From the NCBI GenBank assembly GCA_030390025.1, contig CM059432.1, forward strand, positions 45,262,001 to 45,326,000: a DNA stretch of 64,000 bases. The letters are read 5' to 3'. The stretch's first letter is position 1. Each line of letters opens with the position of its first letter. The notes under the pieces were generated by a model. That model was not told the DNA's origin, searched no databases, and was given only the letters and a program-made list of their open reading frames with translations. Positions 8,577-49,300 of this stretch are shown here, in pieces. This DNA comes from Squalus acanthias. Taxonomy: Eukaryota. The position numbers and the translations under genes are program-made.

Positions 8577-8893
8577 TTATCTAGCTTCCCCTTAAAGGTA
8601 TCTATGCTGTTTGTCTCAACCACTCTATGTGATAGTGAGTTCCACATTCTAACCACACTCTGCATAAAAAAGTTTCTCCTGAATTCCTTCTTGGATTTGT
8701 TAGTGACTCTCTTATATTTATGGCCCCTGGTTTTGGACTCCTCCACAAGTAGAAACATCTTCTCTACATCTACTCTATCAAACCGCTCCATAATTTTAAA
8801 GACCTCTGTTAGGCCACCCCTGGAGAAAAGAGCTCCAATCTGTTCAGTCCTTCCTGCTAGTTATATCCTCTCAGTTCTGGTATCATCTTTCTA
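8577..8893 (-). mobile_element. CR1 LINE 3' fragment (its 3' tip lies at ~5385-5460, split by the + strand CR1)
   Basis: FDRVDVEKMFLLVEESKTRGHKYK...RRNFFMQSVVRMWNSL...FKGKLDK. Confidence 0.8.
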
Positions 8894-8904
8894 AAAGATG
8901 TGCA

Positions 8905-9165
8905 CCCCCCACATCCTTTACCCCACCATTGGTGGCCATGCCGTCAACCATCTAGGCCCTAAACTCTGGAATTCCCTCCCTAATCTTCTCTTCTCCGCCT
9001 CTCCACCACTCTCCTCCTTTAAAACGCTCATTAAAACTTATCTTTTTGACCAAGATTTTGGTCACCTTTGGTCATTCTTTGGCTTAATGTCAATTGTTTT
9101 TCTGATTACGCTCCTGTGAAGCATCTTGGAACATTTTTCTACATTAAAGGCGCTTCTTGTTGTAA
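8905..9165 (+). mobile_element. L2 LINE 3' fragment
   Basis: TIGGHAVNHLGPKLWNSLP...SSFKTLIKTYLF, then an L2-type tail; similar to 19025-19795. Confidence 0.75.
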
Positions 9166-10637
9166 AGTAACAGATAGAACTAAACGGACAGGTGGAATAT
9201 AATGAACACAAATGTTTATTCTTAGAGGACTGCAGTGTTGTTTCAGCTATAAATATTGAAATGCAACTTGTAAATTTTATTCAGAGATTACAACAAGAAG
9301 TTGCATTTATATAGTGCCTTTAACAGTTGCACACTCAGCAGGACTCATCATATGATTCTTTCCACTGTTCCCACAAAGCGTTGTGGTCTGAGCTACATTG
9401 ATCGAGATAGAGCTTCAGTTGAAATGAAAGAAACAGGTCAAAATCAGACGATTTCCAGTAATAGATGCATGTTTATTTCTTTTCTTACTTTGGCATTCAG
9501 CTCTATGTTTTTTTGAAAGAGGGAGCAAAGGAACAGCTCAAGGACACTGCATGTTTAGGGTTTTAATGATAATTTGATCTGAACAATCACAGCTGAAAAA
9601 ATATTTGAAAAATGACATGACTGAGGTCCAAACGATAAGAAGAAGGAGAAAAAGACTGGTAGCCAAGGTAACTGCACCTGTGTTAAACTATGGTGAAGAC
9701 AAAAATATGAAATGGAGCAAGCAGTTTTAAATTCAGTATCACGTCCACATTAATGTCACTAGACGAGCTCTATATATCCTGCCTGGAGTTAATTTCACTG
9801 TAAGTAAAAGTGTCTCTAAATGTGTTTTTAATTCAAATTCTTAAACTAAAGTGAAAGTAAATATAAGGAGCCAAGGAGTCAATTCTGGGCAATAAAATAT
9901 CAAACTATGAACAGCTATTGAATTCCCTTTAACCTTTTGATCAATTTATTGTGTTAATTAGTGAGCAATTAATTTTAGTACATTGAAATAATTTTTATTC
10001 AGACAGTTCCTTTGTTAGAATGATAGATAGGAACACCGTGGAACCTTTTCTCTGCACACGATGTGTAACAGAATCGTAAACCTGCTTATAAACAACATTT
10101 TGTTACACCTAACAATAGAGGAAATTTCATTGTTTCAACTTTAATGCATATTAACAGATTTACATGAAAAAACAGGTTTACAATTATCATATAACCCATA
10201 ACCCATAAATGTGTCTTTCTTGTTTAAATTCATAGCACAGTACACCAGTCTAATTTTATCCACAGTCCTGCACTCCATTCCATTACTTCAACATTATCAG
10301 GTAATGTGAATGGCCCGACTCATCAGCCAACTACGACTGTTAGCTAAGCTATGCATGAGGCTATTTGTTAGGGGTTTCTTGAGATCCAGACATCTGAACA
10401 ATACAATAAATATTCTAGCCATTGGCAAGTTAAGAACCTGGGGCTCTGACCTTTCTATGAGCACATCAAACTTAATTAATGTAAATATGAGAGTGAAAAA
10501 TTATTTTCAAATAAATTTCAACAAAGTATCAAAATAATCTTTCTCATTTTTTACCTGGAAAATTAATTTCTCATCTGTTCCATTAATCTCAGCTGATTCA
10601 ACGCACTCTTTTATGAACAGCAATTGAAAAAAAAATA

Positions 10638-12294: not shown

Positions 12295-14098
12295 TGAGTG
12301 TGTCGCTATTCAAGAAAGGGGAGAGAGAAAACAGGGAACTACAGGCCAGTTAGCCTGAAATCAGTCATCGGGAAAATGCTGGAATGCATTAATAAGGAAG
12401 TGGTAACAAGGAACTTAGAAAATCATAATATGATTAGGCAGAGTCAACATGGTTTTATGAAAGGGAAATTGTGCCTAACAAATTTATTCGTGTTTTTTGA
12501 TGATGTACCTAGCAGAGTAGATAAAGGGGAACCAGTGGATGTAGTATATTTGGATTTCCAAAAGGCATTCAATAAGGCATCACATAAAAGGTTGCTACAC
12601 AAGATAAGGGCTCAGGGGGTTGGGGATAATATATTAGCATGGATAGAGGATTGGTTAACGGACAGAAAACAGAGAGTAGGGATAAACGGGTCATTTTCCG
12701 GTTGACAGGCTGTAACTAGTGAAGTGCCACAAGGATCAGAGCTTGGGCCTCAGCTATTTACAATCTATATTAATGACTTCGATGAAGGGACTGAGTGTAA
12801 TGTATCAAAGTTTGCTGATGATTCAAAGCTAGATGGGAAAGTAAGCTGTGAGGAGGACACCAAGAGCCTGCAAAGGGATGTAGACAGATTAAGTGAGTGG
12901 GCAATAAGGTGGCAGATGGAGTATAATGTGGGGAAATGTGAGGAAGATGGTTGTGGTAATTGAAGGTCAATCATCACAGCCCCAGGACATCACTGCAGGA
13001 GTTCCTCAGGGCAGTGTCCTAGGCCCAACCATCTTCAGCTGCTTCATCAATGACCTTCCCTCAAATATAAGGGCAGAAATGAGGATGTTCGCTGATGACT
13101 GCACAGTGTTCAGCGCCATTCACAACTCCTCAGATAATGAAGCAGTCCATGCCCACATGCAACAAGACCTGGACGACGTTCAGGCTTGGGCTGATAAGTG
13201 GCAGGTAACATTTGCGCCACAGAAGTGCCAGGCAATGACTAACTCCAACAAGCGAGAGTTTAACCACCTCCCCTTGACATTCAATGGCATCACCATCGCC
13301 GAATCCCCCACCATCAACATCCTGGGGGTCACCATTGACCAGAAGCTTAACTGGACCAGCCATATAAATACTGTGGCAACAAGAGCAGGTCAGAGGCTAG
13401 GTATTCTGCGGCGAGTGTCTCGCCTCCTGACTCCCCAAAGTCTTTCCACCATCTACAAGGCACAAGTAAGGAGTGTGATGGAAGACTCTCCACTTGCGTG
13501 GATGAGTGCAGCTGCAACAACACTCAAGAAGCTTGACACCATCCAGGACAAAGCAGCCCATTTGATTGGCACCCCATCCACCACCTTAAACATTTACTCC
13601 CTCCACCACCAGCGTACTGTGGCTGCAGTGTGTACCATCTACAAGATGCACTGCAGCAACTCATCAAGGCTTCTTCGGCAGCATCTCCCAAACCCGTGAC
13701 CTCTTCCACCTAGAAGGACAAGGGCAGCAGACGCATGGGAACACCACCACCTCCAAGTTCCCCTCCAAGTCACACCATCCTGACTTAGAAGTATATCGCC
13801 GATCCTTCATCATCGCTGGGTCAAAATCCTGGAACTCCCTACCTGACAGCACTGTGGGAGTACCTTCACCACATGAACTGCAGCGGTTCAAGGCGGCTCA
13901 CCACCACCTTCTCAAGGGCAACTAGGGATGGGCAATAAATGCTGGCCCAGCGACGCACAGATCTCATTAGCAAATAAAAAAACCATATATTCACTTTGGT
14001 AGGAAGAGTTCGAAGATTAGCTATGATCTTATTGAATGGCGAAGCAGGCTCGAAGGGCCATATGGCCTACTCCTGCTCCTACTTCTTATGGTCTCATA
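12295..14098 (+). mobile_element. CR1 LINE RT fragment (12295-12943 and 13985-14098), interrupted by a second LINE family
   Basis: GNYRPVSL, QHGFMKGK, YLDFQKAF, KFADD; resumes with ATTCACTTTGGTAGGAAG and a CR1 3' UTR after 13984. Confidence 0.85.
12944..13983 (+). mobile_element. CR1/L2-group LINE 'family B' 3' fragment
   Basis: AGVPQGSVLGP, MFADD, KLNWTSHINTVATRAGQRLG; ends GGGCAATAAATGCTGG...AATAAAAAAA; same family as 27901-28563 and 46323-48983. Confidence 0.9.
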
Positions 14099-14221: not shown

Positions 14222-16316
14222 TATAAGAACATAAGAACATAAGAAATAGGAGCAGGAGTAGGCCAATCGGCCCCTCGAGCCTGCTCCGCCATTCAATAAG
14301 ATCATGGCTGATCTGATCCTAACCGCCAATCTACTATCTATCACAGAACCATCTCCTGCATCTAACAGAATTGCACACACGAAATAGGAGCAGAATCAGG
14401 CTACACAGTCCCTGGGCCCGCTCCACTACCCACAGGGCCATGACCGATCCGAACCTAGACTCATGTCCAAATTCCTGCCCGCTCCCCGTAACCCTTAATG
14501 CCCTTTACTTCTAGGAAACTGTCTATTTCTGTTTTAAATTTAATTAATGTTGTAGCTTCTACAGCTTTTTGTGGCAGCATATTCCATGGACCTACCACCC
14601 TCTGAGTGAAGTAGTTCCTCCTCATCTCAGTTTTGAAAGAGCAGCCCCTTATTCTAAGACTATGTCCCCTAGTTCTCGTCTCACCCGTCATCGGGAACAT
14701 CCTTCCCGCATCCACCCGATCCAACCCCTTCACAATCTTATATGTTTCAATAAGATCGCCTCTCATTCTTCTGAACTCCAATGAGTAGAGTCCCAATCTA
14801 CCCAACCTCTCCTCATATGACCACCCCCTCATCCCCGGGATTAACCGAGTGAACCTTTTTTGCACTGCCTCGAGAGCAAGGATGTCTTTCCTTAAGTAAG
14901 GACACCAAAACTGTATGCAGTATTCCAGGTGCGGTCTCACCAATACCTTGTACAACTGAAGCAATACCTCCCTATTTTTATATTCTATCCCCCTAGCAAT
15001 GAAAGCCAACATTCCATTTGCCTTCTTAATCACTTGCTGCACCTGCATACTAACCTTTTGAGTTTCGTGCACCAGGACCCCCAGATCCCTTTGCACTTCA
15101 GTACTCTCCAGTTTCTTGCCATTAAGATAATAAATTGCTCTAGGATTTTTCCTGCCAAAGTGCATCACCTCACACTTTCCAGTGTTGTATTCCATCTGCC
15201 AAATCTCTGCCCACTTACTTAGCCTGTCTATGTCCCCTTGCAGGTTTTTTATGTCCTCCTCACTCACTACTTTCCCTCCCATCTTTGTATCATCTGCAAA
15301 TTTTGATATGTTACACTTGGTCCCTTCCTCCAAATCGTTAATATAGATTGTGAAGAGTTGGGGACCCAGCACTGACCCCTGTGGAACACCACTAGTTACT
15401 GATTGCCAGTCTGAGAATGAACCATTTATCCCAACTCTTTGCTTTCTGTTAGATAGCCAATCCTCTATCCATGCCAGAATATTACCCCCAATCCCGTGAT
15501 TTTTTACCTTAAGCAATAATCTTTTGTGTGGCACCTTGTCAAATGCCTTTTGGAAGTCTAAATACACTACGTCCACTGGTTCCCCTTTATCCACTCTATA
15601 TGTTACTTCCTCAAAGAACTCCAGCAAATTTGTCAAACATGACTTCCCCTTCGTAAAACCATGCTGACTTTGTCCTATTAAATTATGATTATCCAAATGT
15701 CCTGTTACTGTTTCCTTAATAATGGACTCCAAAATTTTACCTACCACAGATGTTAGGCTAACCGGTCTATAGTTACCAGCCTTCTGTCTACTGCCCTTTT
15801 TAAATAAGGGTGTTACATTAGCAGTTTTCCAGTCTGCCGGGACCTTAGCGGAATCCAGGGAGTTTTGAAAAATTATTACCAATGCATCTACAATCCCTAC
15901 CGCCACTTCCTTCAAGACTCTAGGATGTAAGCCATCAGGTCCAGGTGATTTATCCGCCTTGAGTCCCATTATTTTACCGAGTACCACTTCCTTAGTGATT
16001 TTGATCGTGTTTAGCTCCTCTCCCCCTATAGCCCCCTGTTTGTCCAGTGTTGGGATATTCTTAGTGTCCTCTACTGTAAAGACTGATACAAAATATTCAT
16101 TCAGTGTTTTTGCCATCTCCATATTTCCCACCATTAATTTCCCGGTCTCATCCTCTAAGGGACCAACATTTACTTTAGCCACCCTTTTTCTTTTTATATA
16201 ACTATAAAAACTCTTACTATCTGTTTTTATATTTTTTGCTAATTTACTTTCATAATCTATCTTCCCTTTCTTAATCAATCTTTTTGTTATTTTTTGCTGC
16301 CTTTTAAAGTTTTGGT
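14222..16316 (-). mobile_element. Young 5'-truncated CR1 LINE with uninterrupted RT reading frame
   Basis: ORF 14461-16398 has full RT (SPGPDG, NYRPVSLTS, YLDFQKAFD, SGVPQGSVLGP, KFADD) with no stops; (TTCTTATG)n tail at 14222-14245. Confidence 0.95.
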
Positions 16317-16820
16317 AGATAATGGCAGCTGTCACTGATACAGAGGGGTCAAATAAGGCAATGGTGATATCACACCAAGAAGAGATGGAATGCAGCAAGT
16401 TCTTAAAAAAACAGTGAGGCTAAGGGCAAGATGCCATTTTCGCTAAGCTAATGGTGGAGCGGTGTAACTCGGACAGCAATTTTTGGATATTCACATTTAA
16501 CCGCACAATTGCTCTAAATGATGATTAATACTGTCGCTCAGAATTTTTCCAATAATTTTCCTACCACCGAGGTTAGGCTGACTGGCCTGTAATTGCTCGG
16601 TCTATCCCTTTCTGTCTTTTTCAACAATGGGTGCAACGTTAGCAGTCCTCCAGTCCTCAGGTACCACACCTGTAGCCAGAGAGGATTGGAAAATGATGGT
16701 CAGAGCCTTCGCTATTTCCTCCCTTGCTTCTCTTTACAGCCTGAGATGCATTTCATCCAGGCCTGGCAATCTATCTACTTTCAAAAATACTAAACCCCTT
16801 AATATTTCCTCTCTCACTAT

Positions 16821-20250: not shown

Positions 20251-20819
20251 ATTTGATTTTGTAAATATTATACTTTCTATCTCAGTATTTTATTTAACTT
20301 TTTTGTTTCTTTTCCAAATACTTTGCTCATGTAAAATAATTATTTTGCTTGTTAGCTGAATTTGCTTTCTTTCCCCAAAACTTTGATACTAAACTGATTA
20401 CTCAGTGCTGCTCAGTCTTTGGGCCAAGTAGCTCCAAGATGCAACATTTGGAAATGGAAGATAATGGGCTAGAAATTTGTTATAGCCAAGAAATGGGCAG
20501 TGTTTAGATTAAAAAAGGTTAAGCTGCGCCATCTGAAAATCATCTAGGATGCACACATAAATTCGTGCTTACTCCTCATTAACATGATTGCAGTCATGAT
20601 TCTAGTCTAAAAGCTCAAGCTGATTGGCGTTACACTGAAAAGCTGGACCAATATCGGGAGCAGTCTAATTGCAATTCATGATAGCCATAGGCTTTTTCCA
20701 CTACGTAAAGGGGAGGTTCATTGATGCTGCAGCAACTCATTCTCAGGATTGTCAGCTGTGCTGCCCCAACAGCAAACCAAACACTAGTTAGAAGACATCC
20801 GTTAGAACCAAGGCAGACA

Positions 20820-21702
20820 GGAGAAGCAGGGAAAGAGCCCGGAGGTTCTTGGATGACACTCTGGAGGCATTAGCTTTCGTGGTTGAGAGAAGGTGGGCGG
20901 TCCTGTACCCGCCAACTGGCAGGAGGCCCTCGCCTCAAGTCTGCCGCACTATGTGGAGGGAGATAGCAGACCACGTCACGTGGTCCCACACCCAGTGCAG
21001 GAAGAAGTTTAATGACCTCACACGGGTGGTTAGGGTGAGTGAAGGCTTCAACAAATGTTACATACCACCATCTGTACCACAAGCTTCACACACTGCTCAA
21101 TGCACCACACCCCCGAGCATGGTGAGCAATGTCGCAGCTTCCATTGCAGCACAGGCAGAAGCGACCCAACATTTTAGTGCTGCAGCAGAAGCTCAGACTG
21201 CTGTCATGCAGTCACTGCTTGGTGGCATCCAAGCTCAGACTGCTCTCAGGCAGTCTCGGCTTGAAGACTCCCAAGCTCAGACTGCTGCCATCGTGGCTGG
21301 GTTTACCACTGTCAACTGGGACTTTCATGGTGTCACTGCAGGCCAGCAATCTGTGCTCCAACAGATGGCTAGGAATGCTGAGGCACCACCCCGGGGGAGT
21401 GGCAGTGGCTCCATGGTGCAGGAACCTGCTGTCCTCTCTCAGGATGACAGCATTCCTTCTCCCACCCCTGCCACTCCACCATTGCCCTTGCAGTTGCCTC
21501 CCAGCCAGCCAGCCTAATCTGCTGCTGCACATGCCGATGTGGTGCAGTTTACAGCCGGGCCTTCTAGGGGCAGAGCTGGTCGAGGTCGTTCTGCAAGGCC
21601 ATCTGAAGTCTCCTGCAATGAAACTCAGCAGTCTTCCACCAGCCGTACTGCAGCCACTGGGGGAACACTGCGTAGGAGCACTAGATCAGAAAAGGGCACA
21701 TG
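20820..21702 (+). pseudogene. Harbinger Myb/SANT-like DNA-binding protein, internally deleted
   Basis: LEALAFVVERRWAVLYP...MWREIADHVTWSHTQCRKKFNDLTR trihelix motif; donor AGG|GTGAGT at ~21035. Confidence 0.8.
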
Positions 21703-26760: not shown

Positions 26761-27753
26761 TTACACCACTTTCCCGTCTTGTCCATTTTTGCCTGCTACC
26801 TGGAAAGTGGCCTCGTCAGTTGCAGTGAATGGTGAGACATTACTTAACCTCGAGCAATGGATGTGTGTGTGTGACAGGATTGGTTTGGTAACCTTCAGCT
26901 TGCCGATTGTTTGCTTTATTACACATCTGGTCATCATGTGGCTTTCATTATAGTGCTCCTCGGGCTCATTGCTTGGCCTCCTCAAGGGTGTCATCAGCCA
27001 CGTCTTTAGTGGATAGCCCTTGTCTCCAAGCAGCCAGCCAGTAAATCTGTTTGGAGGTGTGAAGAGCTGAGGGAGGGTGAACTGGCACAGGATGAAAGAG
27101 TCATGACAATTCCCTAGGAATCTGGGACACACATGCATGATGATCTTTTTGTGGTTGCAGACGAGCTGCACATTGAGGGAGTGGAAGCCCTTGCGGTTCA
27201 CAAACATTCCTGGGTGATCTGGGTGTGCCTTGATGGCCACATGTGTGCAGTCAATGATGCCCTGCACCTGTGGGAAGCCAGCCAGAGCTGCAAAGCCGAG
27301 CGCCCGCTCAGTCACGTTGGCTTCATCTGTGGCAAAGTGTACACAAGTGTCTGGCTTGTGAAAAATGGCATCGGTCACCTGGAGTGAGCCTGAGGCGAAG
27401 ATTTTGAGGGTGGTGCTGACTTTGACAGCTACTGGTAAGGCATGTCCACCAGGTCCTCTGGGCAGCAGGTCTTCTTCCAGCAAGCTACAAATGTCTGCCA
27501 TGACCTGGCGCGATAGCCTGAGCCTCCTGAAGCACTGCTGCTCATTCAGATCCGGGAAGCTCATCCTCTGCCTGTATACCCTGTGTTGGGAGTATCGCCT
27601 CCGGCGAGGTGCACCCCTATGCTGATCCCCTCTCTCTTGTGGAGCATCAGGTCGGTGAGGAGAAGGCTGCTGCTGCTGCTGGTGTTGTTGGTGCTGGGGC
27701 TCATCTTGGTCCGAATCTGAGGTCCAAGGTGAAACAGCATAAGCGGCAACCAT
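26761..27753 (-). pseudogene. Harbinger transposase (HARBI1-like), C-terminally truncated
   Basis: [56 protein letters not shown]; similarity is lost after QTIGKLKV. Confidence 0.9.
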
Positions 27754-27900
27754 GCTGATCTGATCAATGCCAGGTAAAGTGGAGATCAGAGGCACAATCC
27801 TCCAATGTAGTGAAAGTGGCTTCATAGGTTGCAGAAACCACCTGCAAACTCCTGATAACAAAATCTCTGCACAAAATAGGCAAGGAAGGAGGTGTAAGAT

Positions 27901-28563
27901 TTTTTTTTTTTTATTCGTTTATGGGATCAGGGCGTCGCTGGCAATGCCAGCATTTATTGCCCATCCCTAGTTGCCCTTGAGAAGGTGGTGGTGAGCCGCC
28001 TTCTTGAACCGCTGCAGTCCGTGTGGTGAAGGTACTCCCACAGTGCTGTTAGGTAGGGAGTTCCAGGATTTTGACCCAGCGACGATGAAGGATCGGTGAT
28101 ATACTTTTAAGTCAGGATGGTGTGTGACTTGGAGGGGAACTTGGAGGTGGTGGTGTTCCCATGCGTCTGCTGCCTTTGTCCTTCTAGGTGGAAGAGGTCG
28201 CGGGTTTAGGAGGTGCTGCCAAAGAAGCCTTGGCGAGTTGCTGCAGTGCATCTTGTAGATGGTACACACTGCAGCCACGGTACACCGGTGGTGGAGGAAG
28301 TGAATGTTTAAGGTGGTGGATGGGGTGCCAATCAAGTGGGCTGCTTTGTCCTGGATGGTGTCGAGCTTCTTGAGTGTTGTTGGAGTTGCACTCATCCAGG
28401 CAAATGGAGAGTATTCCATCACACTCCTTACTTGTGCCTTGTAGATGGTGGAAAGGCTTTGGGGAGTCAGGAGGTGAGACACTCGCCACAGAATACCTAG
28501 CCTCTGACCTGCTCTTGTTGCCACAGTATTTATGTGGCTGGTCCAGTTTAGTTTCTGGTTAAT
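27901..28563 (-). mobile_element. LINE family B 3' fragment
   Basis: NQKLNWTSHINTVATRAGQRLG...GSKSWNSLPNS; poly(T) at 27900-27912. Confidence 0.9.
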
Positions 28564-37176: not shown

Positions 37177-37375
37177 TAATTAATCTATCTTATCAGGGGT
37201 ACAGTAGCATCGTGGTTATGTTATTGGCTGAAAGGTATGTTTCTGTGAGTATGACTATGTCAGGCTGTTGCTTGACTAGTCTGTGGGACAGCTCTCCCAA
37301 TTTTAGCACAAGTCCCCAGATGTCCCCAGTAATCCAGAGGCTGGGACTAAAAATCCGAAGACATGACCTATATGT

Positions 37376-37772: not shown

Positions 37773-38066
37773 TATATGTGACACACAGCAATGTGGTTGA
37801 CTCTTAACTGCCCTCTGAAATGGACACTCAGTTGTACCAAACCACTACCAAGAAGTATACTAAGAATAAAACCGGACGGATCACCCGGCATCAACCTAGG
37901 CACCGGACATGACAAAGGCACACCCAGCCAAGTCGACCTTGCAAATTCCTCCTCACTAACATCTGGGGACTTGTGCTAAAATTGGGAGCACTGTCCCGCA
38001 GACCAGTCAAGCAACAGCCTGACAGTCATACTCACAGAAACATACCTTTCAGCCAATGTCCCAGAC

Positions 38067-39733
38067 TGTAAGGGATTCCTGACCCTGCGTGTCTCGCAGC
38101 CTGTGAGATTCACGCGGCTCTGTGCAGCCTGTATGTCAGTGCGGGTCTAGGCCTGGTTGCCTGTTCTGGTCTCCAGCCAGTCTGGGAACACTAGACACAC
38201 CTGTGAGTGGTTCGAATCACTCTCCCTTACGGTTCTAGACACTGGACTTAGATGCGAGAGCAGTAATGGAGATAAAACTCATGTAGACTCGGTTTGAATG
38301 GTACGAAATGGAAAATCTTTATTGCATGATACTTAAAATTATGAAATACATGTCATAAGCACAGATTAATGACAGTACAATCTTACAAACAGTCATATAG
38401 TCGATCTTAGGGAAACGAGGAACGAACGGCACAAAGTAAATAGGGGCACACATTACAAATATCCTTAATCCTTAAACCCTCCCCTATCAATATCTATCCT
38501 AAACTAGATTCGTAGGATCTCGAGACTCATGCTCACCACTCGTGATAACTCGGAGAAATTCCGAATAGCTGATCGGATGTTTTTCACCGCAGCACCCACG
38601 TGTCGGTCAGGAGATCTCCTGGTCCCACTTGTTTACTTGCTTCTGCTGCTTCGGCTAGTAGGCTGGACCGTCTGCTGTGATGAAGACCTCTGTTGGTGGG
38701 TTTCACAGATCAGTCAATATCTCAAAGGAGAATCTTCCGGGGTCCGTTCTTTAAAGTTCAAAGAAGTCTTCCTGGCAAGGAGAAACTTGGCTGATCGACC
38801 TACAGGCGCGGTCGGGATTTACTGACCGTGGCGATGGATATGGTCTTCTTCTCTTCTCCTCTCATCTCATCTCATCTCATCTCATCTCGGGCCTTTGGTT
38901 CCGCTGCCAGTTACCAACATAGGTCTTCGTTACGCGACACGAGGTAGATCCGAACGGATCAGAAAGTTCAACAGTCTTTTCAGAAGAGGCAACAGGCAAG
39001 CAGAAGCCCAACTACGAGTACACAGGAGCAGCCACGAGGTTACGAATCGACCGGATAAAACACAGGAGCAAGCGAGCGAACGCAGGAGCAAGAGCAAGAG
39101 AGAGAATGGACGGTTTGGAGCCTGCAATTATAATGCAAAAATCTTCCGTTTCCCGCCCAACTATAATGTCCATTCTTTTGTTTAGGGTTTGGCGCCCAAA
39201 TGTCTTGTATGGGTGATCTCCGTTCTTAATGGGTTTCGGGGCTACTCATGAATGTTTGAGTACCTGTTAATATTTCTCCCATTGTTAAATCGGTCGGTGT
39301 TCTCCCTGGAGGGGTTTGGGGCTTCCAAGTGTCCTGTATAACTACCTGCTAACGGCTCTCTCATCGTAGAGTCGTTGGGAGTTTACATATTAATGTCCTT
39401 TGGATGGGCCCTTGAGTACTCGGTACAATGGCTTTCCTTTGTACCTGGGAGACCGATTCCAGTATCTATGTTTATACTGCAAACCCATAATGTCTCGTGT
39501 ATTATCTTCACTGTGCTGAATCGTTATCGATCTTGCACAAATGTTTAATGGAACGCCATCTTGTCTGCCTGTTGAAAAGTCTAGAATGTTCTGTCACGAG
39601 GTGCGGCGGCCATTTTACAGGCTGCTTGTGTCCAATTTAAACCTGCCAGCATTCTGCTGAAATAAAAGCTGTTTGAACGAAACTTTGTGTTTTCTCCTTA
39701 TTAATCAAATCGCGATATATTGCGAATTCTACA
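38067..39733 (-). repeat. 3' LTR (1,667 bp)
   Basis: Direct repeat of 44656-46322 (constant offset 6,589); TGTA...TACA ends; (TCTCA)n inside; minus-strand AATAAA at 38318-38323. Confidence 0.97.
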
Positions 39734-39745
39734 GTCCCTCCTGTT
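39734..39745 (-). other. Polypurine tract (plus-strand primer)
   Basis: Minus strand AACAGGAGGGAC directly abutting the TGT of the 3' LTR. Confidence 0.75.
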
Positions 39746-40159
39746 GATGCGAATAACTCCGCTTATCGTATCAAAAATCACAGTGGTGAGCAATCTTATC
39801 TCGATTTCACTCCGAATCCAGTAAATTAATCCCATAATTTTTAACTTAACTAGGGTCTCTGTGTCGTCCTTATTTCCCAAGAAAATCACATTTTATATCA
39901 CCGTAGGCATCATTTGCCCTTAAACTTACACCACTTGTTTTCCTTCCCGGCGTAACCAGGCCGATACCTCACGCATCACCTGTATATTTGTCTTTTATTC
40001 AGGGAAAGGAAAAAAAACAAAACCCAAAACCAAACAATCAACACCATCACCAAAATAATCAAACCCCAACTCTTAAAACATGTCGAGTTTCCAACGTATT
40101 TACAATGAGTACAAACTTCCGCGGCGCACGCGGCGAGCGGGAGTGACGCCATTTTCCGA

Positions 40160-41416
40160 TTACACGGTGCTCTCATCGTGCACGCGCACGTAACGTTCTC
40201 GCCACTCTCCCGTGTTTTCATGCTTGGTGAGGCGCTTGTCTCTTTTACAATGTATGACCAATAGGTACACTACAATAAACACTTGACAGACGACTAAAAT
40301 GTGGGAGGCTATTCTGATCCATGAAGGCACTTCAATATTCGTGAACAGATTCCACCACGGTGGAACCACTATGTCCAGAATGTCTGTTCCTATTTCGACA
40401 GTTTTCTGCTCTAATGTATAAAAATGTTTCTGTGATACCGCGACGGCTTTCAGAAGTTTGGTTAAATGCTCAGGGAGAGGGGGAATGAGGTAAAAGCAGT
40501 GAACGCATCGTTCACCAAACCCCTTCTTTGCCTCCCTACTTGATCCAAAACTTCCTGCGGTGCGGTGTACAAACTTGTAACATCTTGGTCAACAGGACCT
40601 GATACAACTGTTCCGTCTTTTTGGGGCACCACTCTGGTAACCGCACCTCAGTGAGATTTAAAATCACCGAGGCCACCGCGTAATGTACCCCCTGAAATAG
40701 TATCTGGTCTGTGGGGACCAGTACCAAACCGTTCCCGGGTCCCTTACTAGTTTTAGGGCACCCTTCTTCCTCAGCTAGAACCACCGGAATCGTGGGCGGG
40801 GCTTTGCGTGGGCGCGTAATGAGCTCAGTGGCATTTACTGGGATCGGGGAGAATGGGGCTCCGCACCCCCTGGTGCTCGCATCCCACCTCATCCCCTGTC
40901 CGTTATCCTGCCATTGATTACATAAATCCCCTCATCCGGTTCCCACCATTTGTCCCAACAGACTTTCACTTGTCCGTCTGTCCCCGTAATTGTCCGATGG
41001 GTATTATTACCCAGTCGTTCCCACTCGACCGAAGAGTTTCTCATAGTTTTGCTCAGCTTTCGCAGCCACCACCATCGGCTCAATGGGACATTCCCACTAC
41101 AGGTCAAACAAATCCGTTTGCCGACGGTGACGCTGATCCTGGGTGCGATGATCCTTACTTTGGGGCACATTAAAGAAGTCTCTTTGTAGGCAAACCCCGA
41201 TGTGCTGGAATACTCCGTTGAGTTCGTTCCCAGCCATCCTGGCCACCTTCCCTTGTGGAAATAGGTGCTGGTCCCCTCTGCCTTCCGTCTTCCGGTCCCA
41301 TCCACCGCGATGGGGGCCGTGTCCCCGGAACATCCAAACACCACGACATCCTTGGTGTGGCCTCGATAGGCCAATCCACATCCGATTGCCACGAGCAATA
41401 CTAGAATTCGTTCCAT
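40160..41416 (-). pseudogene. env: Envelope glycoprotein remnant (signal peptide, Ig-like domain, furin site, fusion peptide, TM); two frameshifts and an internal deletion
   Basis: MERILVLLVAIGCGLAY signal; N-glycosylation sequons NST, NSS, NNT, NAT, NLT; RQRR|GLVNDAFTAF at 40533-40492; PPWWNLF followed by ILVVCQVFIVVYLLVIHC and a basic tail; located just before the PPT. Confidence 0.8.
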
Positions 41417-41589
41417 CCTTCCTTGGTTCCTGTGATCAGATAGAATGAGGTAGCCAGCCTCGCAAAAGTCTCTGGCTTTTGTGAAGGGTGAGCGGGTCCC
41501 CTGACCTCGCCTCACGTAAACTTCAACGTTTGCTGCATAGACTTCCTCTAAACCTAGCCTTAAAACTCCCATCATTTTATCGTTTTCTG

Positions 41590-41700
41590 TTAAAAAACAC
41601 TACAAACTTAGCCTTATTAAAACTTAAAACTTAACCTTGACACTACAAACTTAAACTTAACCTTGAACTATAAACTTAAAACTTAAAACTAATAACTTTA
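41590..41700. repeat. Imperfect AAACTT(A)-based tandem repeat between ORF-X and env
   Basis: Repeated AAACTTA / AACCTTGA units. Confidence 0.8.
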
Positions 41701-41729
41701 CAGTGCCGCCCGTTCTCAGGGCGGCCCCT

Positions 41730-42839
41730 TTAAACTCTGAGAAGGCTGCTGCGAGCTCTTCCCGACGGTGGGAGGGCACTGACCCTTCCCTCTGATCTGC
41801 CGCAGCCTGTTACTGCTGCGATGTGGCCTGTCTGTACCCGGGTTATCTTAACCTGAAGTCTACGCCTTGGGGCAGTCTGGGGACATGACCACATCCTCCT
41901 GGGCTGGGGTTCTCTACTTGACCTACGGGGAGTTGCTATGGGCGGGGGTTCCGTGACGGACGGACCGGGTTCCGAGACCTCCAACGGGATGACCTGGGGT
42001 TCCATCACAGTCGCCGGCTCCGCCTCCGCTGACTCCGCCTCCCTAACCTCGGGGCTGGCAGTTCGTGGCTCCGCCCTGCTCGGCCCAGCAGGCGGCCCTT
42101 CACTCGTGATCTCTGCCTCCCCTGAGGACTGGACGTTCAAAGCGGGCGGCCACATCTCTGGGAGCCACATTGGTACTCTCTGTGCTCCTATAGCGGCTGG
42201 CCCTGCCTCCTCTAGCTCCTCCCTCCTGTCCTCGGGACCTGCAGCTTGTGTGTCCACCCTGTGTGGATCTCTACCTATAGGCCCCATTCCCCCCAGACCG
42301 TTCCTCAGGAACCACCCGTCATCATCACTATGCTCATCTGCACTATCCTCATCTGACCAGGGTACCCTGGGTTCTTCCTCATCTAACCCCCAACTCCAGA
42401 AAAACGCTGCATGATCGTCCGGGATGTCCCTTCCCCTGATGCAAGCTGCTATGCCTGCCTGTGTGCCTTGTGGTCCTACCTGGGGCTGTGCTTTCCCACT
42501 GGCGGGGTTTACCCCTGTAGTTTTCCCTTGCGCACCTGGCTGGTACAGTTTGCATTGGTTTACATCCTCATACTCCCGGCTTTTGGCTACCCTGTAGGCT
42601 GCTTTTATCTCACTAAGCTGCGCTTCTAGCCTGAGCACGTCTAACTTTCCCATTGATCGGGCGTTCTCCTCCCGCAGGGTCTGCTCTCTAAGCTGCCCTT
42701 CCAGCCCATCTATTTTCCCTATTAAGCGGGCGTTCTCCTCCCGCAGGGCCTGCTCTTTTAACCTGGCCTCCTCACCGCAGACCCCCTCCTGTGCGTGTCT
42801 TTTAAAAGGACACAGGTAGGCAGGCTGCGTGGGCTCTAG
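41730..42839 (-). CDS. ORF-X: 369-codon frame continuous with gag after its stop; coiled-coil repeat, acidic patch, Pro/Glu-rich region; function unknown
   Basis: Manual translation shows no stop from 42839 (LEPTQPAYLCPFKR...) into track ORF 41730-42653; no protease, RT, RNase H or integrase motifs. Confidence 0.65.
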   Translation of the reverse strand, partial: LEPTQPAYLCPFKRHAQEGVCGEEARLKEQALREENARLIGKIDGLEGQLREQTLREENARSMGKLDVLRLEAQLSEIKAAYRVAKSREYEDVNQCKLYQPGAQGKTTGVNPASGKAQPQVGPQGTQAGIAACIRGRDIPDDHAAFFWSWGLDEEEPRVPWSDEDSADEHSDDDGWFLRNGLGGMGPIGRDPHRVDTQAAGPEDRREELEEAGPAAIGAQRVPMWLPEMWPPALNVQSSGEAEITSEGPPAGPSRAEPRTASPEVREAESAEAEPATVMEPQVIPLEVSEPGPSVTEPPPIATPRRSSREPQPRRMWSCPQTAPRRRLQVKITRVQTGHIAAVTGCGRSEGRVSALPPSGRARSSLLRV

Positions 42840-44651
42840 TCATTGGGTACTATTAGACGGTCCTGCGGCACCTACGGGGCCGGTTGCGACCGCCACCTGT
42901 CCACGCGCATTCAAAACCAGCTTGCGCATGGCTCCTAACACTGCTTCGAGGTCGTCGGGAGGGGTGGGTGCCTTGGCTTCCTTAGCCGGGACAGGCGCCT
43001 GGGCTCGGACCGCGGGATTTTTATCCTTGGAATCCTTCCAAGGGTTCCTGCAGTGCTTGCGCCAGTGCCCTGTCTTCCCACACCCGTAACAAGCATTACT
43101 GGCTTGTGGGACGCGATTTCCCTCCTGATGCCACTCCTTTTGAGCCGGGGCTGCGGGTCGTACCTCATGTACTCTTCCCTTAAAGGGACGTGTCGTCATA
43201 CCCCTTATATTACGATAACCTAACGTGAGTCGATTCAAGACCGACTCTTCCGTAAGGTTGAGGTCATTGGGATCGAACCAGGCTTTTGCCTGCTCTCTAA
43301 CGGCTGGTAAACTGTTGGCTATTATGCACCTAAGCCAATGAGTTAGAGCGGCGCCTTCCACATCTTCGCGCTCGGGCGCACCTAGACAGCTGCGCTCATA
43401 TACTGGCCACAGCCTGTCGGCAAAAACCTTCGGGGGTTCTCCCTCCATCTGCACTGTCTGTCCCACTCTAGCAAACGGACCTCCGTCGTTCGCCCCCAAC
43501 ACTTCTAGGACCTCATTTTTTAATTCCTCATAACTTTTGTTTCCCCTCTTGCTCTCGCCTGAGAGACACTGAAGGACCGAGCTGTCTAATGAGAACAGCA
43601 GCATTTTTGCTGTCTCCCCATCATCGCAGCCGTTAATGGCTGCGGCTTGCTCAACTTCCCTGAAATGTACGGAAGGGTCGTCTATCTCGGTCAGCTTCCG
43701 TACGTGATTTATCATAGCTCTCAGCTGATGTGAACTGTGAGGCAACACCAGCTGTCCGAGGAGATCCCCCGGTTCTTCCCCACCGTTTCTGCTTGGGCCC
43801 CTTTTAATACCCGTTACTGGATACAACGATCCCTTTTCTGCTTCCTTTTCAATGGGCTTTTTCGTTTCTTCCATTGCTTCCTCCCTAACCCAGGTTTCTG
43901 AATAGCTGGGTGGCGCGGAGGGCGCAGTGGCTACTACTTCTTCTGCTTTACTTGGTGGGGATTTTCTAAATCTCTCATTTACTAGCGGCTGGTGCGCCGA
44001 CGGATTGATAAGGCACACCATGCCGTTCGCATTGTTCACGGCCTTTTTGAGGCTCTCTATCTCCCTTTGGCAGGCGCTATGGTCGGCTCCCTGAAACTTA
44101 TCCTCAAGGGCCAACTTATACGCCGACCTAACCCCCATTAAGCTCTCTTCTTGAGTTCTTATCTGGGCAGCTTGGCGGTTACATCTTTCCTTTAACCTGC
44201 TCTCATTCAATTTTGCCTCAGTGACCTGGCACTTGAGATAATCTATCCTTGTCTTAAGGTGACTGGAGACTTCCTGGCTTTCCTGGTGTAACTCATTTAA
44301 ATTCTTAATGAGCACCTCCCCTCCAGAAACCTTCTCCTCCATTTCTCCCTCTAAATGACTGATTCGAGCTGTTAGCGCTGTAATGGTCTGGTTTGAAATC
44401 TGAACCTGCCTTTTGTAGCACATAAGCCAGACTGCTTTCTCAACTGTCTTTTTATGTTCCTTACTATCTGTCCACCTTTCAGCTGCCTCTAGTGGGCTCT
44501 TATCCGCTAACAATTCACTTATCCACTTCTTAGTTAGATTAACCTTTCCAAACACATAATCCGCTATCTTTTCCTGCATAACATTTCGTACAGTCATTCC
44601 AAAATCTAACACACTACCCTCTCGCTGCCAGTGTCCTGCCGCGGTCGCCAT
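42840..44651 (-). CDS. gag: Gag polyprotein (~603 aa from the ATG at 44651)
   Basis: Intact ORF directly after 5' LTR/PBS; N-terminal coiled coil; PSAPPSY; capsid-like helical region; CYGCGKTGHWRKHC CCHC knuckle at 43050-43091. Confidence 0.92.
   Translation of the reverse strand: MATAAGHWQREGSVLDFGMTVRNVMQEKIADYVFGKVNLTKKWISELLADKSPLEAAERWTDSKEHKKTVEKAVWLMCYKRQVQISNQTITALTARISHLEGEMEEKVSGGEVLIKNLNELHQESQEVSSHLKTRIDYLKCQVTEAKLNESRLKERCNRQAAQIRTQEESLMGVRSAYKLALEDKFQGADHSACQREIESLKKAVNNANGMVCLINPSAHQPLVNERFRKSPPSKAEEVVATAPSAPPSYSETWVREEAMEETKKPIEKEAEKGSLYPVTGIKRGPSRNGGEEPGDLLGQLVLPHSSHQLRAMINHVRKLTEIDDPSVHFREVEQAAAINGCDDGETAKMLLFSLDSSVLQCLSGESKRGNKSYEELKNEVLEVLGANDGGPFARVGQTVQMEGEPPKVFADRLWPVYERSCLGAPEREDVEGAALTHWLRCIIANSLPAVREQAKAWFDPNDLNLTEESVLNRLTLGYRNIRGMTTRPFKGRVHEVRPAAPAQKEWHQEGNRVPQASNACYGCGKTGHWRKHCRNPWKDSKDKNPAVRAQAPVPAKEAKAPTPPDDLEAVLGAMRKLVLNARGQVAVATGPVGAAGPSNSTQ
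44633..44650 (-). promoter_or_regulatory. Primer binding site, tRNA-Arg(TCG)-type
   Basis: Minus strand TGGCGACCGCGGCAGGAC, 5 nt after the 5' LTR; complementary to the 3' 18 nt (GTCCTGCCGCGGTCGCCA) of vertebrate tRNA-Arg(TCG), recalled from memory. Confidence 0.85.
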
Positions 44652-44655
44652 TTTC

Positions 44656-46322
44656 TGGAAGGGATTCCTGACCCTGCGTGTCTCGCAGCCTGTGAGATTC
44701 ACGCGGCTCTGTGCAGCCTGTATGTCAGTGCGGGTCTAGGCCTGGTTGCCTGTTCTGGTCTCCAGCCAGTCTGGGAACACTAGACACACCTGTGAGTGGT
44801 TCGAATCACTCTCCCTTACGGTTCTAGACACTGGACTTAGATGCGAGAGCAGTAATGGAGATAAAACTCATGTAGACTCGGTTTGAATGGTACGAAATGG
44901 AAAATCTTTATTGCATGATACTTAAAATTATGAAATACATGTCATAAGCACAGATTAATGACAGTACAATCTTACAAACAGTCATATAGTCGATCTTAGG
45001 GAAACGAGGAACGAACGGCACAAAGTAAATAGGGGCACACATTACAAATATCCTTAATCCTTAAACCCTCCCCTATCAATATCTATCCTAAACTAGATTC
45101 GTAGGATCTCGAGACTCATGCTCACCACTCGTGATAACTCGGAGAAATTCCGAATAGCTGATCGGATGTTTTTCACCGCAGCACCCACGTGTCGGTCAGG
45201 AGATCTCCTGGTCCCACTTGTTTACTTGCTTCTGCTGCTTCGGCTAGTAGGCTGGACCGTCTGCTGTGATGAAGACCTCTGTTGGTGGGTTTCACAGATC
45301 AGTCAATATCTCAAAGGAGAATCTTCCGGGGTCCGTTCTTTAAAGTTCAAAGAAGTCTTCCTGGCAAGGAGAAACTTGGCTGATCGACCTACAGGCGCGG
45401 TCGGGATTTACTGACCGTGGCGATGGATATGGTCTTCTTCTCTTCTCCTCTCATCTCATCTCATCTCATCTCATCTCGGGCCTTTGGTTCCGCTGCCAGT
45501 TACCAACATAGGTCTTCGTTACGCGACACGAGGTAGATCCGAACGGATCAGAAAGTTCAACAGTCTTTTCAGAAGAGGCAACAGGCAAGCAGAAGCCCAA
45601 CTACGAGTACACAGGAGCAGCCACGAGGTTACGAATCGACCGGATAAAACACAGGAGCAAGCGAGCGAACGCAGGAGCAAGAGCAAGAGAGAGAATGGAC
45701 GGTTTGGAGCCTGCAATTATAGTGCAAAAATCTTCCGTTTCCCACCCAACTATAATGTCCATTCTTTTGTTTAGGGTTTGGCGCCCAAATGTCTTGTATG
45801 GGTGATCTCCGTTCTTAATGGGTTTCGGGGCTACTCATGAATGTTTGAGTACCTGTTAATATTTCTCCCATTGTTAAATCGGTCGGTGTTCTCCCTGGAG
45901 GGGTTTGGGGCTTCCAAGTGTCCTGTATAACTACCTGCTAACGGCTCTCTCATCGTAGAGTCGTTGGGAGTTTACATATTAATGTCCTTTGGATGGGCCC
46001 TTGAGTACTCGGTACAATGGCTTTCCTTTGTACCTGGGAGACCGATTCCAGTATCTATGTTTATACTGCAAACCCATAATGTCTCGTGTATTATCTTCAC
46101 TGTGCTGAATCGTTATCGATCTTGCACAAATGTTTAATGGAACGCCATCTTGTCTGCCTGTTGAAAAGTCTAGAATGTTCTGTCACGAGGTGCGGCGGCC
46201 ATTTTACAGGCTGCTTGTGTCCAATTTAAACCTGCCAGCATTCTGCTGAAATAAAAGCTGTTTGAACGAAACTTTGTGTTTTCTCCTTATTAATCAAATC
46301 GCGATATATTGCGAATTCTACA
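44656..46322 (-). repeat. 5' LTR (1,667 bp)
   Basis: Near-identical to 38067-39733; putative minus-strand TATAAT at 45716-45721 with a GC/GT box ~25 nt upstream. Confidence 0.97.
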
Positions 46323-49300
46323 AGACTCCTCCATCAACATCCCTGGGTATGTCCTGTGATGACGGCACAGGGTGTGTCCCTGGAAGTCCTCAACATTGAC
46401 TCCGGACCCCATGAAGTCTCATGGCATCAGATCAAACATGGGCAGGGAAACCTCCTGCTGATTACCACCTACCACCCTCCCTCAGCTGATGAATCAGTAC
46501 TCCTCCGTGTTGAACACCACTTGGAAGAAGCACTGAGGCAAGGGCACAGAACGTACTCTGGGTGGGAGGACTTCAATGTGCATCATCAAGAGTGGCTCGC
46601 TAACACCACTACTGACCGAGCTGGCTAAGTCCTGAAGGATATAGTTGCCAGACTGGGCCTGTGGCAGGCGGTGAGAGAACCAACACAAGGGAACTAGACC
46701 TTATCCTCACCAATCTACCTGTCACAGATGCATCTGTCCATGACAATATTGGTAGGAGTGACCAACACACCGTCCTTGTGGAGTCGAAGTCCCGTCTTCA
46801 CACTGAGGACACACTCCATCGTATTGTGTGGCACTACTACTGTGCTAAATGGGATTGATTCATAATAGATCTAGCAGCTCAAAACTGGGCATCCATCAGG
46901 CACTGTGGGCCATCAGCAGCAGCAGAATTGTATTCCACCACAATCTGTAACCTCATGGCCCGGCATATCCCTCACTCTACCATTACTATCAAGCCAGGGG
47001 ACCAACTGTGGTTCAATGAAGAGTGTAGAAGAGCTTGCCAGGAGCAGCACCAGGCGTACCTAAAACTGAAGCTACAACACAGGAATACATACATGCTAAA
47101 CAGCATGCTATAGACAGAGCAAAGCGATCCCCCCACCAATAGATCAGATCAAAGCTTTGCAGTCCTGCCACATCAAATCATGAATGGTGGTGGAAAATTA
47201 AAGAACTAACGGGAGGCGGAGGCTCCATGAATATCCCCATCCTCAATGATGGGGGAGCCCAGCACGTGAATGCAAAAGACAAGGCTGAAGCATTCACAAC
47301 CATCTTCAGCCAGAAGTGCCGAATAGATAATCTATCTCAGCCTCCTCCTGAGGTCCCCACCATCACAGAAGCCAGTCTTCAGCCAATTTGATTCATTCCA
47401 TGTGCTATCAAGAAACGGCTGAGCGCACTGGATACAGCAAAGGCTATGGGCCCCAACAACATCCCGGTTGTCATGCTGAAGACTTGTGCTCCAGAACTAG
47501 CCGCACTTCTAGCCAAGTTGCTCCAGTACAGGTACAACACTGGCATCTACCCGACAATGTGGAAAATTGCCCAGGTATGTTCCGTCCACAGAAAGCAGGA
47601 CAAATCCAATCTGGCAAATTACCACCCCATCAGTCTACTCTCAATCATCAGCAAAGTGATGGAAGGTGTCGTTGACAGTGCTATCAAGCAGCACTTACTC
47701 ACCAAAGCTCACCAATGCTCAGTTTGAGTTCCGCCAAGACCACTCGGCTCCAGACCACATTACAGCCTTGGTCCAAACATGGACAATAGAGCTGAATTCC
47801 AGAGATGAGGTGAGAGTGACTGTCCTTGACATCAAGGCAGCATTTGACCGAGTGTAGCATCAAGGAGCCCTAGTAAAATTGAAGTCAATGGGAATCGGGG
47901 GAAAACTCTACACTGGCTGGAGTCATACCTAGCACAAAGGAAGATGGTTGTGGTTGTTGGAGGCCAATCATCACAGCTCCAGGACATCAGTGCAGGAGTT
48001 CCTCAGAGCAGTGTCCAGGCCCAACCATCTTCAGTTGCTTCATCAATGACCTTCCCTCCATCATAAGGTCAGAAGTGGGGATGTTCGCTGATGATTGCAC
48101 AGTGTTCAGTTGCATTTGCAACTCTCAGATAATGAAGCAGTCCGTGCCCGCATGCAGCAAGATCTGGATGACATTCAGGCTTGGGCTGATAAGTGGCAGG
48201 TAACATTCGTACCACACAAGTGCCAGGCAATGACTATCTCTAACAACAGAGAGTCTAACCACTTCCCCTTGACATTCAACGGCATTACCATCGGCGAATC
48301 CCCCACCATCAACATCCCGGGGGTCACCATTGACCAGAAACTTAACTGGACCAACCACATAAATACTGTGGCTACAAGAGCAGGTCAGAGACTGGTTATT
48401 CTGCGGCAAGTAACTCACCTCCTGACTCTCCAAAGCCTTTCCACCATCTACAAGACACAGGTCAGGAGTGTGATGGAATACTCTCCACTTGCCCGCATGA
48501 GTGCTGCTCCAACAACTCTCAAGAATCTCAACACCATCCAGGACAAAGCAGCCCACTTGAATGGCACCCCATCCACCACCCCAAACATTCATTCCCTCCA
48601 CCACTGGCACACTGTGGCTGCAGTGTGTACCATACAAGATGCACTGCAGCAACTCGCCAAGGATTCTTCAACAGCATCTCCCAAACTCGTGACCTCTACC
48701 AGCTAGAAGGACAAGGGCAGCAGGCACATGGGAACACCATCACTTCCAAGTTCGCCTCCAAGTCACACAGCATCCTGACTTGGAAATATATCGCCATTCC
48801 TTCATCGTCGCTGTGTCAAAATCCTGGAACTCCCTCCCTAACAGCACTGTGGGAGTACCTTCACCACACGGACTGCAGCGCTTCAAGAAGGTGGCTTACC
48901 AATGCCTTCTCAAAGGCAATTAGGGATGGGCAATAAATGCTGGTGGTGCCAGCGATGCCCTCATCTCATCAACGAATAAAAAAGACATAAAAGTCAATGT
49001 TGCAGCATTATTTAAAATGTTTGCTTGTGTATGCAATGTACCCCATCACTCATTTAATTACTTGTTTTAATTACAAACTCTCTTCCATATAGCATTTTTA
49101 ACAGCTGCCAATGGATAGCCGACAGCAATTCCAAGAACTTCCATTTACGATAAAGATATTGTGAAATTATTTTTATATACAAATTACCTGCACTTGTTAA
49201 TCCTGTACATGTTAATCCTTTAAATGTAAATTTGTATTTACAGGGACAGTTGCTTGGAGTGTGGCAAAGTATTCAGCATATGTACAAACAGGGAAATAAT

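Follow-up and report, generated by a model that had tools for sequence, protein, structure and literature searches.

A pol-less provirus of Squalus acanthias as a probable non-autonomous member of a young, high-copy class III/SnRV-grade retrovirus family with a predicted F-type envelope

How could a provirus with intact terminal signals, an open gag and a remnant of env lack pol altogether, and to which lineage does it belong? The question is raised by an element on the minus strand of a 64,000-nucleotide stretch of Squalus acanthias DNA, hereafter the window (GenBank assembly GCA_030390025.1, contig CM059432.1, positions 45,262,001 to 45,326,000 of the forward strand). A preliminary description, made from the sequence alone, had recognised a young, pol-less provirus with an unknown open reading frame (ORF-X) in place of pol and had favoured a loki-like or env-bearing Ty3/Gypsy lineage. 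The analysis reported here assigns a probability of about 80% to a different overall account, namely that the element is a non-autonomous insertion of a young, high-copy endogenous retrovirus (ERV) of class III/snakehead retrovirus (SnRV) grade with an F-type Env. To this account we infer, in addition, stop-codon readthrough, mobilisation in trans, reinfection and receptor binding by the N-terminal module of Env.

The pol-less provirus and its autonomous relatives

Much of the anatomy first described at this locus was confirmed (Table 1). The cis-acting signals are complete, comprising 1,667-bp long terminal repeats (LTRs) with TG...CA termini, an AGAC target-site duplication (TSD), a primer-binding site (PBS) that pairs with the 3' end of the host tRNA-Arg(TCG), and a purine tract; the gag frame runs uninterrupted through 603 aa and includes one CCHC knuckle, and pol is absent. 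The youth of the provirus is likewise borne out, as its LTRs differ by 3 mismatches over 1,667 bp (0.18%), which corresponds to about 4 million years at 2.2e-10 per site per year, the rate assumed for sharks in the sections consulted of Han (2015; PMC4422223), or to about 0.4 million years at the mammalian rate. Among 16 pol-less copies with both ends located, 11 have a 4-bp TSD, while 2 scored 3 and 3 scored 0. The T-loop plus PBS sequence has 431 genomic matches, and ARAGORN called tRNA-Arg(tcg) at both of the two such loci examined; reverse transcription would be primed by this tRNA, and integration would proceed with a 4-bp duplication. The tRNA-Arg(TCG) genes themselves form long tandem arrays with 1,623-bp spacing on one contig at about 39.0-42.2 Mb, with a tRNA-Ser(GCT) also present at one examined locus. 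The same PBS occurs in more divergent families as well: among 30 PBS loci, 5 had no match to the element across the PBS and 3 matched at 72-74% identity.

The proposed search for pol-containing relatives by way of gag retrieved them. Among 6,379 candidates for the capsid region in the 3.7-Gb genome, all 150 scored matches were 98-99% identical, and of 20 copies fetched from this list, 9 continue in frame into pol after the gag stop, the other 11 having the pol-less junction. Counts of exact patterns across the genome gave 974 pol-less and 2,015 pol-start junctions (reversed-pattern controls, 0), a sum of 2,989; exact PBS matches number 3,425, or 2,994 once the 431 tRNA genes are removed, and LTR starts number 4,627. 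The family comprises roughly 3,000 copies, about one third of them pol-less. Pol of the autonomous copies consists of protease (PR), reverse transcriptase (RT), tether, RNase H (RH) and integrase (IN) followed by a long tail, with Pfam matches to RVT_1, RT_RNaseH, RNase_H, rve and protease. What had been taken for a non-canonical layout is a non-autonomous derivative with private deletions, the autonomous copies being canonical gag-pol-env.

The family is young. LTR pairs of 19 pol-less copies include 5 with zero mismatch over the aligned length and 16 with at least 99% identity. Intact frames, counted in the first 20 copies of each list on one contig (skipping three pol-less places already fetched), amounted to 15 for gag, 18 for ORF-X and 13 for env in the pol-less sample, and to 13 for gag, 11 for pol and 8 for env in the pol-start sample. 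Near-identical gag is present in sequencing runs of five organisms from eight studies. Some copies stand in tandem arrays with common LTRs, spaced at about 7.7 kb (pol-less) or 11.1 kb (pol-bearing).

ORF-X proved to be a composite rather than an unknown gene: 11 codons of the pol start are followed by an insert of ~245 nt, occupying the place of about 3.6 kb of PR-RT-RH-IN in autonomous copies, and by the last ~277 codons of Pol, whose match to the post-integrase C-terminal tail of pol-bearing copies rules out a novel gene. In sequence the insert is similar to a coiled coil in Gag of a related family (35% over 57 aa, pairwise E 4e-5), a resemblance treated as a lead only because coiled coils match easily. 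Given that the ORF-X frame is kept, readthrough of the gag stop would yield a Gag-X protein. Intact cis signals, one junction common to many dispersed copies and an autonomous partner characterise a non-autonomous ERV subfamily, and the element of the window is a damaged member of this pol-less (gag-X-env) subfamily. The subfamily would have had a single origin, a short coiled-coil insert taking the place of most of pol without loss of frame; its genomes, having kept cis signals, gag and env, may be copied in trans by Pol of the autonomous copies, and the window copy would have lost env function through its private deletions.

Unusually, the first gag ATG extends two bases into the start of the PBS, an arrangement found at 28 of 30 PBS loci sampled, with the frame open to the end of the fetched stretch at 23 of the 30. 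Two divergent Gag homologues likewise begin MAT, exactly 24 codons ahead of a conserved second Met, so that conservation of the gag frame does not depend on the choice of start. Features resembling Retrotrans_gag occur in the capsid region, whose sequence found no match in the PDB. The gag stop lies in a UGA-CUAG context in 20 of 20 fetched copies and in 37 of 40 position-sampled copies. This is a readthrough motif of alphaviral and cellular genes, and autonomous copies would accordingly be expected to make Gag and, by readthrough, Gag-Pol. A readthrough-stimulating hairpin was also predicted after the stop and was rejected, with z-scores of -1.5 to 0.05 and no conservation in divergent pol-bearing variants. 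The contexts UAG, UGAAGA, UGACGA, UGAAGU and UAGGGC are given for retroviruses in the sections consulted of a 2026 review, which cite UGACUAG for efficient readthrough in cells and name no retrovirus that uses it (PMC13517186); UGA-CUAG would be a retroviral context new to that list.

Placement among retroviruses and the envelope

The family was placed by means of RT plus tether, in a tree inferred in careful mode from 27 of about 140 rows, hand-chosen to span the groups. Its three Loki RTs and its known retroviruses were labelled by match to rows of the Wang and Han supplement, one simian foamy virus by similarity, and the SnRV record was recognised by its RT, which matches the SnRV row there. 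The canonical retroviruses form a clade at 100/99 that takes in the element, foamy viruses, class I and SnRV, with Loki as its sister outside, and the approximately unbiased (AU) test rejects a clade of the element with Loki (p-AU 0.0007). Class I rows unite at 100/97 and foamy rows at 100/100, in both cases without the element, which excludes a class I (gamma/epsilon) ERV, also contradicted by an F fold in place of a gamma-type CX6CC Env, and a member of the Spumaretrovirinae. A clade with SnRV and neighbouring rows is absent from the tree, and the AU test does not reject it (p 0.22, 27-row set). The RT of the element reads LPQG (LPQGF) where Loki rows read CPFGY; the RT motif ISNGFWS has 3 occurrences in the covered part of the Wang and Han supplement, all in the SnRV row, and the Loki RT motif had 0 genome matches by exact pattern, a weak test. 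Ty3/Gypsy is excluded by the tether and second RNase H of the autonomous copy and by the tree. The RT phylogeny that the preliminary description had recommended therefore sets the element outside the gamma/epsilon, foamy, Loki and Gypsy groups, and the lineage it had favoured is not sustained.

Autonomous copies, with an RT inside the retroviral clade, the order LTR-PBS-gag-pro-pol-env-polypurine tract-LTR and a PR-RT-tether-RH-IN Pol, have the composition of canonical Retroviridae, and their in-frame gag-pol stop and SnRV-like Env are those of SnRV-related class III (clade Huo). Judged from sequence comparison, "canonical retrovirus, class III/SnRV grade" is a fair label, with the exact position left open.

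As in the family, gag and pol of SnRV share one frame split by a stop, Gag is coiled-coil with one knuckle, the PBS begins TGGCGA (its tRNA is presumably Arg), the RT is 43% identical to that of the family, and the Env core is homologous. The two differ in the gag-pol stop (UAG-GGC in SnRV, UGA-CUAG in the family), in the leader (about 250 nt before gag in SnRV, whereas gag of the family starts at the PBS and its LTRs measure 1.67 kb) and in the Env N-terminus, which is shorter in the family. In SnRV Pol, moreover, RNase H and integrase are separated by an additional segment. According to the sections consulted, SnRV-like ERVs occur in the elephant shark as CmiERV lineage I (Han, 2015; PMC4422223), and members of clade Huo are known from every vertebrate group (Xu et al., 2018; PMC6001957). 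A motif search of the CmiERV supplement gave no match; compared by description, CmiERV I is dated 75 million years (PMC4422223), unlike the roughly 3,000 young copies and pol-less subfamily seen here. The nearest named Pols (50-53% over RT) belong to amphibian and coelacanth ERVs (Pyxicephalus, Rhinophrynus, Xenopus and Latimeria) annotated "NYNRIN-like", which are known only as database gene models and were not found described as a virus lineage in the literature searched; F-type Env homologues occur in frogs and coelacanth. Homologues in the skate Rhinoraja are 51% (Gag) and 75% (Env) identical. The suggestion of an undescribed chondrichthyan virus family holds in part: the closest named Gag and Env relatives are cartilaginous, and no description of the expansion was found in a search that left outside Repbase and most subscription papers (the Env sets of 10.1101/2021.11.23.469661 and 10.1101/2023.10.26.564294 may hold relatives); SnRV-like ERVs are already known in a chimaera.

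Regarding Env, the window copy retains RQRR|GLVND and a transmembrane (TM) segment. Compared with two sister copies it is missing stretches of 55, 40 and 1,000 bp; the full-length protein of sister copies has 783 aa. The junction of the 1,000-bp deletion has 1 exact genome match, the window locus itself; because the deletions are private to this copy, a short Env is not a family trait. Structure prediction from the single sequence was unusable (predicted local distance difference test, pLDDT, 34), while a model from a 44-sequence alignment reached confident values across the greater part of residues 240-310 and 420-650. Foldseek ranked paramyxovirus F first for this model (human parainfluenza virus 3 F, E 2.1e-12), VIA aligned 291 residues with Nipah F (Z 12.2, root-mean-square deviation 4.9), and in a Foldseek-independent search of 48,161 chains the top 9 were all F proteins (Z 9.9-11.6), followed by foamy Env (Z 7.5 and 7.3); ESM features scored Fusion_gly at 0.93. 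Among the BFVD predicted viral structures, top matches included lispivirus-type glycoproteins and baculovirus F. The family Env is thus predicted to have the paramyxo/pneumovirus F fold, in keeping with the fusion-protein relationship that had been anticipated and for which a structural check of the reconstructed protein had been advised. No CX6CC was present in the Env translation, and the scan of 39 members matched no retroviral TM Pfam family.

The family Env profile aligned to SnRV Env over 334 columns (E 7.5e-6, probability 84%) and weakly to foamy gp130 (E 0.012); the search that gave the foamy match returned no paramyxovirus F as far as E 10. The homology of SnRV Env (record 6131-9379) to the family F core lies in its C-terminal half. 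Env homologues were found across sharks, skate, coelacanth and frogs, led by the skate Env and then those of Mustelus, Chiloscyllium and Heptranchias, and one frog Pol relative runs into a similar env start. The furin-cleaved Env would carry its F fold behind an N-terminal module of ~230 aa, presumably receptor-binding. Of the env remnant with an Ig-like domain described earlier, the remnant stands, and the Ig-like domain reaches motif level only: Pfam Ig_3 scored E 0.033-0.58, below cut-off, in a region with pLDDT mostly <50, and a profile search for Ig structure found none, returning only zinc-finger matches from unrelated fused gene-model ends. A frog Env homologue has a V-set-like N-terminus (E 0.045).

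Two side observations extend beyond the family. In BFVD, the Env models of the walleye viruses WEHV-1 (E 2e-13) and WDSV (E 3.6e-10) match the family model, which suggests that epsilonretrovirus Env is also F-type as modelled. Sixteen clustered Env homologues of the frog Mantella aurantiaca, most of them 677 aa long, appear by sequence to be a parallel young expansion of an ERV with F-type Env in an amphibian.

Selection, spread and competing explanations

The ratio of non-synonymous to synonymous change (omega) was computed from distinct variants against one reference with kappa 3, shared variants being separated from singletons. For shared variants it was 0.06 in RT, 0.09 in the F part of Env in both subfamilies, 0.18-0.21 in the N-terminal part of Env and 0.37-0.39 in gag; singletons gave higher values (0.22-0.40), the pattern to be expected where selection operates while the virus replicates and copies decay once inserted. 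Shared env variants divide into 154 synonymous and 37 non-synonymous in pol-less copies and 200 and 50 in pol-bearing copies, and stop codons are absent from the shared set. That env is under purifying selection in pol-less and pol-bearing copies alike suggests spread by reinfection: enveloped particles probably carried the family into germ-line cells anew, Pol for the pol-less genomes being provided in trans.

The same identity could nevertheless be combined with amplification inside cells by retrotransposition, in which case the conservation of Env would go back to the exogenous ancestor and to recombination in the recent past, and the pol-less copies would be passive passengers with a gag, ORF-X and env that serve no purpose. 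The near-identity of most LTR pairs suits this explanation, since a young family has had little time for decay, as do the neutral evolution of the ORF-X tail and the fact that ORF-X is intact not clearly more often than gag or env given its length. The excess of synonymous shared env variants, the lack of shared stops and the failure of the 1,000-bp env deletion to spread all tell against it, and it is considered unlikely. Far less probable still is a chondrichthyan lokiretrovirus or env-bearing Ty3/Gypsy element, despite several likenesses: lokiretroviruses (PMC7947760) share with the family an F-like Env with a furin site, dual RNase H and the order LTR-gag-pol-env, the nearest named Pols carry the "NYNRIN-like" annotation and Loki IN is reported to be close to CGIN1, and the Retrotrans_gag-like capsid features also speak for it. 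Dual RNase H (tether plus RH) is, however, common to all retroviruses, and F-type Env is not specific to Loki, as Envs of foamy viruses, SnRV and walleye virus match too; lokiretroviruses also differ in RT clade and motifs and in a separate smc gene, which the family lacks, and in the sections consulted of Wang and Han (2021; PMC7947760) none was found in 6 chondrichthyan genomes.

How the F-type Env was acquired admits two histories. Separate capture from a negative-strand RNA virus, as opposed to inheritance from an ancestral retrovirus, would accord with scores of the model that are higher for paramyxo/pneumovirus F (Z 10-12) than for foamy Env (Z 7.5), with the lispivirus-type glycoproteins among the best BFVD matches and with Env swapping, which is common in retroviruses according to the sources consulted. 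It is rendered doubtful by the retroviral nature of the viral relatives detectable by profile and by the spread of Env homologues across sharks, skate, coelacanth and frogs, including the frog Pol with its similar env start. Foamy viruses, in the sections consulted of Fernandez et al. (2024; PMC11468914), possess an F-type fusion core as the family does, but they form a separate RT clade, whereas gag and pol of the family share a frame, its Gag has a CCHC knuckle and its Env bears an extra module ahead of the F core (model residues before 240). In its mode of entry the family resembles Loki and foamy viruses, and it belongs to neither group. Tentatively, retroviruses may have begun with an F-type Env, which Loki, foamy and epsilon lineages and an overlooked SnRV-grade lineage of sharks, coelacanth and frogs retained, with gamma and beta Envs as later replacements; the family would then still be spreading by Env-dependent reinfection, one third of it satellite-like, supplying Gag and Env and borrowing Pol made by UGA-CUAG readthrough of the alphaviral and cellular type.

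As far as the sections consulted extend, F-like Env has been published for Loki (PMC7947760) and for foamy viruses (PMC11468914, in which neither snakehead nor Loki is mentioned), Chen et al. (10.1101/2021.11.23.469661) surveyed only gamma- and beta-type Env and found epsilon Env to be neither, and further F-like cases in Retroviridae are expected by Viro3D (PMC12583693). No paper describing F-like Env for SnRV or SnRV-grade ERVs was found in a search outside which most subscription papers lay. Wang and Han (2022; PMC9040795), in the part consulted, preferred that Loki and canonical retroviruses obtained Env independently, on the ground that likeness to F was seen in Loki Env alone; an F-type Env in an early-branching canonical lineage, together with the SnRV, walleye and foamy signal, would weaken this argument and makes a single ancestral F-type Env testable. 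A young, high-copy, env-retaining expansion in a shark also departs from what is usual in the sources consulted, where the ERVs that spread most lack env. The window copy itself is ordinary, a damaged family member.

Several points weigh against the account of a non-autonomous class III/SnRV-grade insertion spreading by reinfection. SnRV branches with foamy viruses and class I at 91/94, leaving the element in an unresolved basal grade, and RT plus tether identity is 37% to SnRV and 36% to Loki against 50-52% to amphibian and coelacanth ERVs. The RT trees were built without ERV-L, beta, lenti and Odin rows, and CmiERV I also lies outside them. The Env model is only moderate (pLDDT 63, predicted template modelling score 0.48). 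Omega was computed in a tree-free way, and exchange by recombination with autonomous genomes could import the env signal into pol-less copies even if their own Env went unused; frame counts of indels in the Pol tail look like artefacts of aligning repeats and were set aside; the ORF-X tail, with a shared-variant omega of about 1.05-1.12 (0.59 for the insert, on 18 shared variants), gives no sign that ORF-X matters as a protein. Copy numbers are exact matches in an assembly of 3,882 contigs, which possible haplotype duplicates would raise and divergence lower.

Feature coordinates and surroundings of the provirus

Table 1. Features of the provirus by window position
Feature	Position	Strand	Remark
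Provirus	38067-46322	-	
5' LTR, 1,667 bp	44656..46322	-	candidate TATA-like site at LTR position 602
3' LTR, 1,667 bp	38067..39733	-	3 mismatches to 5' LTR
Single AATAAA	about 38318-38323	-	LTR position 1411 of 3' LTR
TSD AGAC, left copy	38063..38066	+	
TSD AGAC, right copy	46323..46326	+	
PBS, tRNA-Arg(TCG)	44633..44650	-	5 nt downstream of LTR
gag, 603 aa	42840..44651	-	N-terminal coiled coil, capsid-like region, one CCHC knuckle
gag stop, UGA-CUAG context	42836..42842	-	in frame with ORF-X; putative readthrough site
ORF-X part 1	42807..42839	-	11 codons homologous to pol start
ORF-X part 2	42563..42807	-	~245-nt insert common to pol-less copies
ORF-X part 3	41730..42562	-	post-integrase tail of Pol, acidic, Pro-rich
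env remnant	40160..41416	-	signal peptide, possible Ig-like domain, furin site, TM
env deletions of this copy	~40920 (55 bp), ~40578 (40 bp), ~40492 (1,000 bp)	-	
Furin-type cleavage site RQRR	40522..40533	-	precedes putative fusion peptide
Short polypurine tract	39734..39745	-	adjoins 3' LTR

Within the provirus, AT-rich short repeats occupy 41590-41700, between ORF-X and env, and a pyrimidine tract followed by AG near 41588 (minus strand) is a candidate env splice acceptor; the single candidate splice donor lies at LTR position 1197, upstream of the PBS. Contigs of three runs, presumed to be RNA, covered 30 of 30 bins, and no LTR-to-env splice joint was among the 15 joints listed of 32, which speaks neither for nor against expression.

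The insertion interrupts what we take to be a host long interspersed nuclear element (LINE) endonuclease frame, its flanks translating as the two halves, and an inverted duplicate of a LINE fragment (37223-37323 and 37959-38057) lies just to its left. Elsewhere in the window, a PIF/Harbinger-like transposase ORF (26764-27918, minus strand) matches DDE_Tnp_4 (E 1.4e-21), and 20792-21514 (plus strand), without a Pfam match, presumably encodes a Myb/SANT-type partner of the transposase. A LINE reverse transcriptase remnant occurs at 14464-16419 (minus strand; RVT_1, E 3.9e-31), and further remnants are recognisable by appearance at 6633-8470, 12908-13696 and 48095-48703 (all plus strand).

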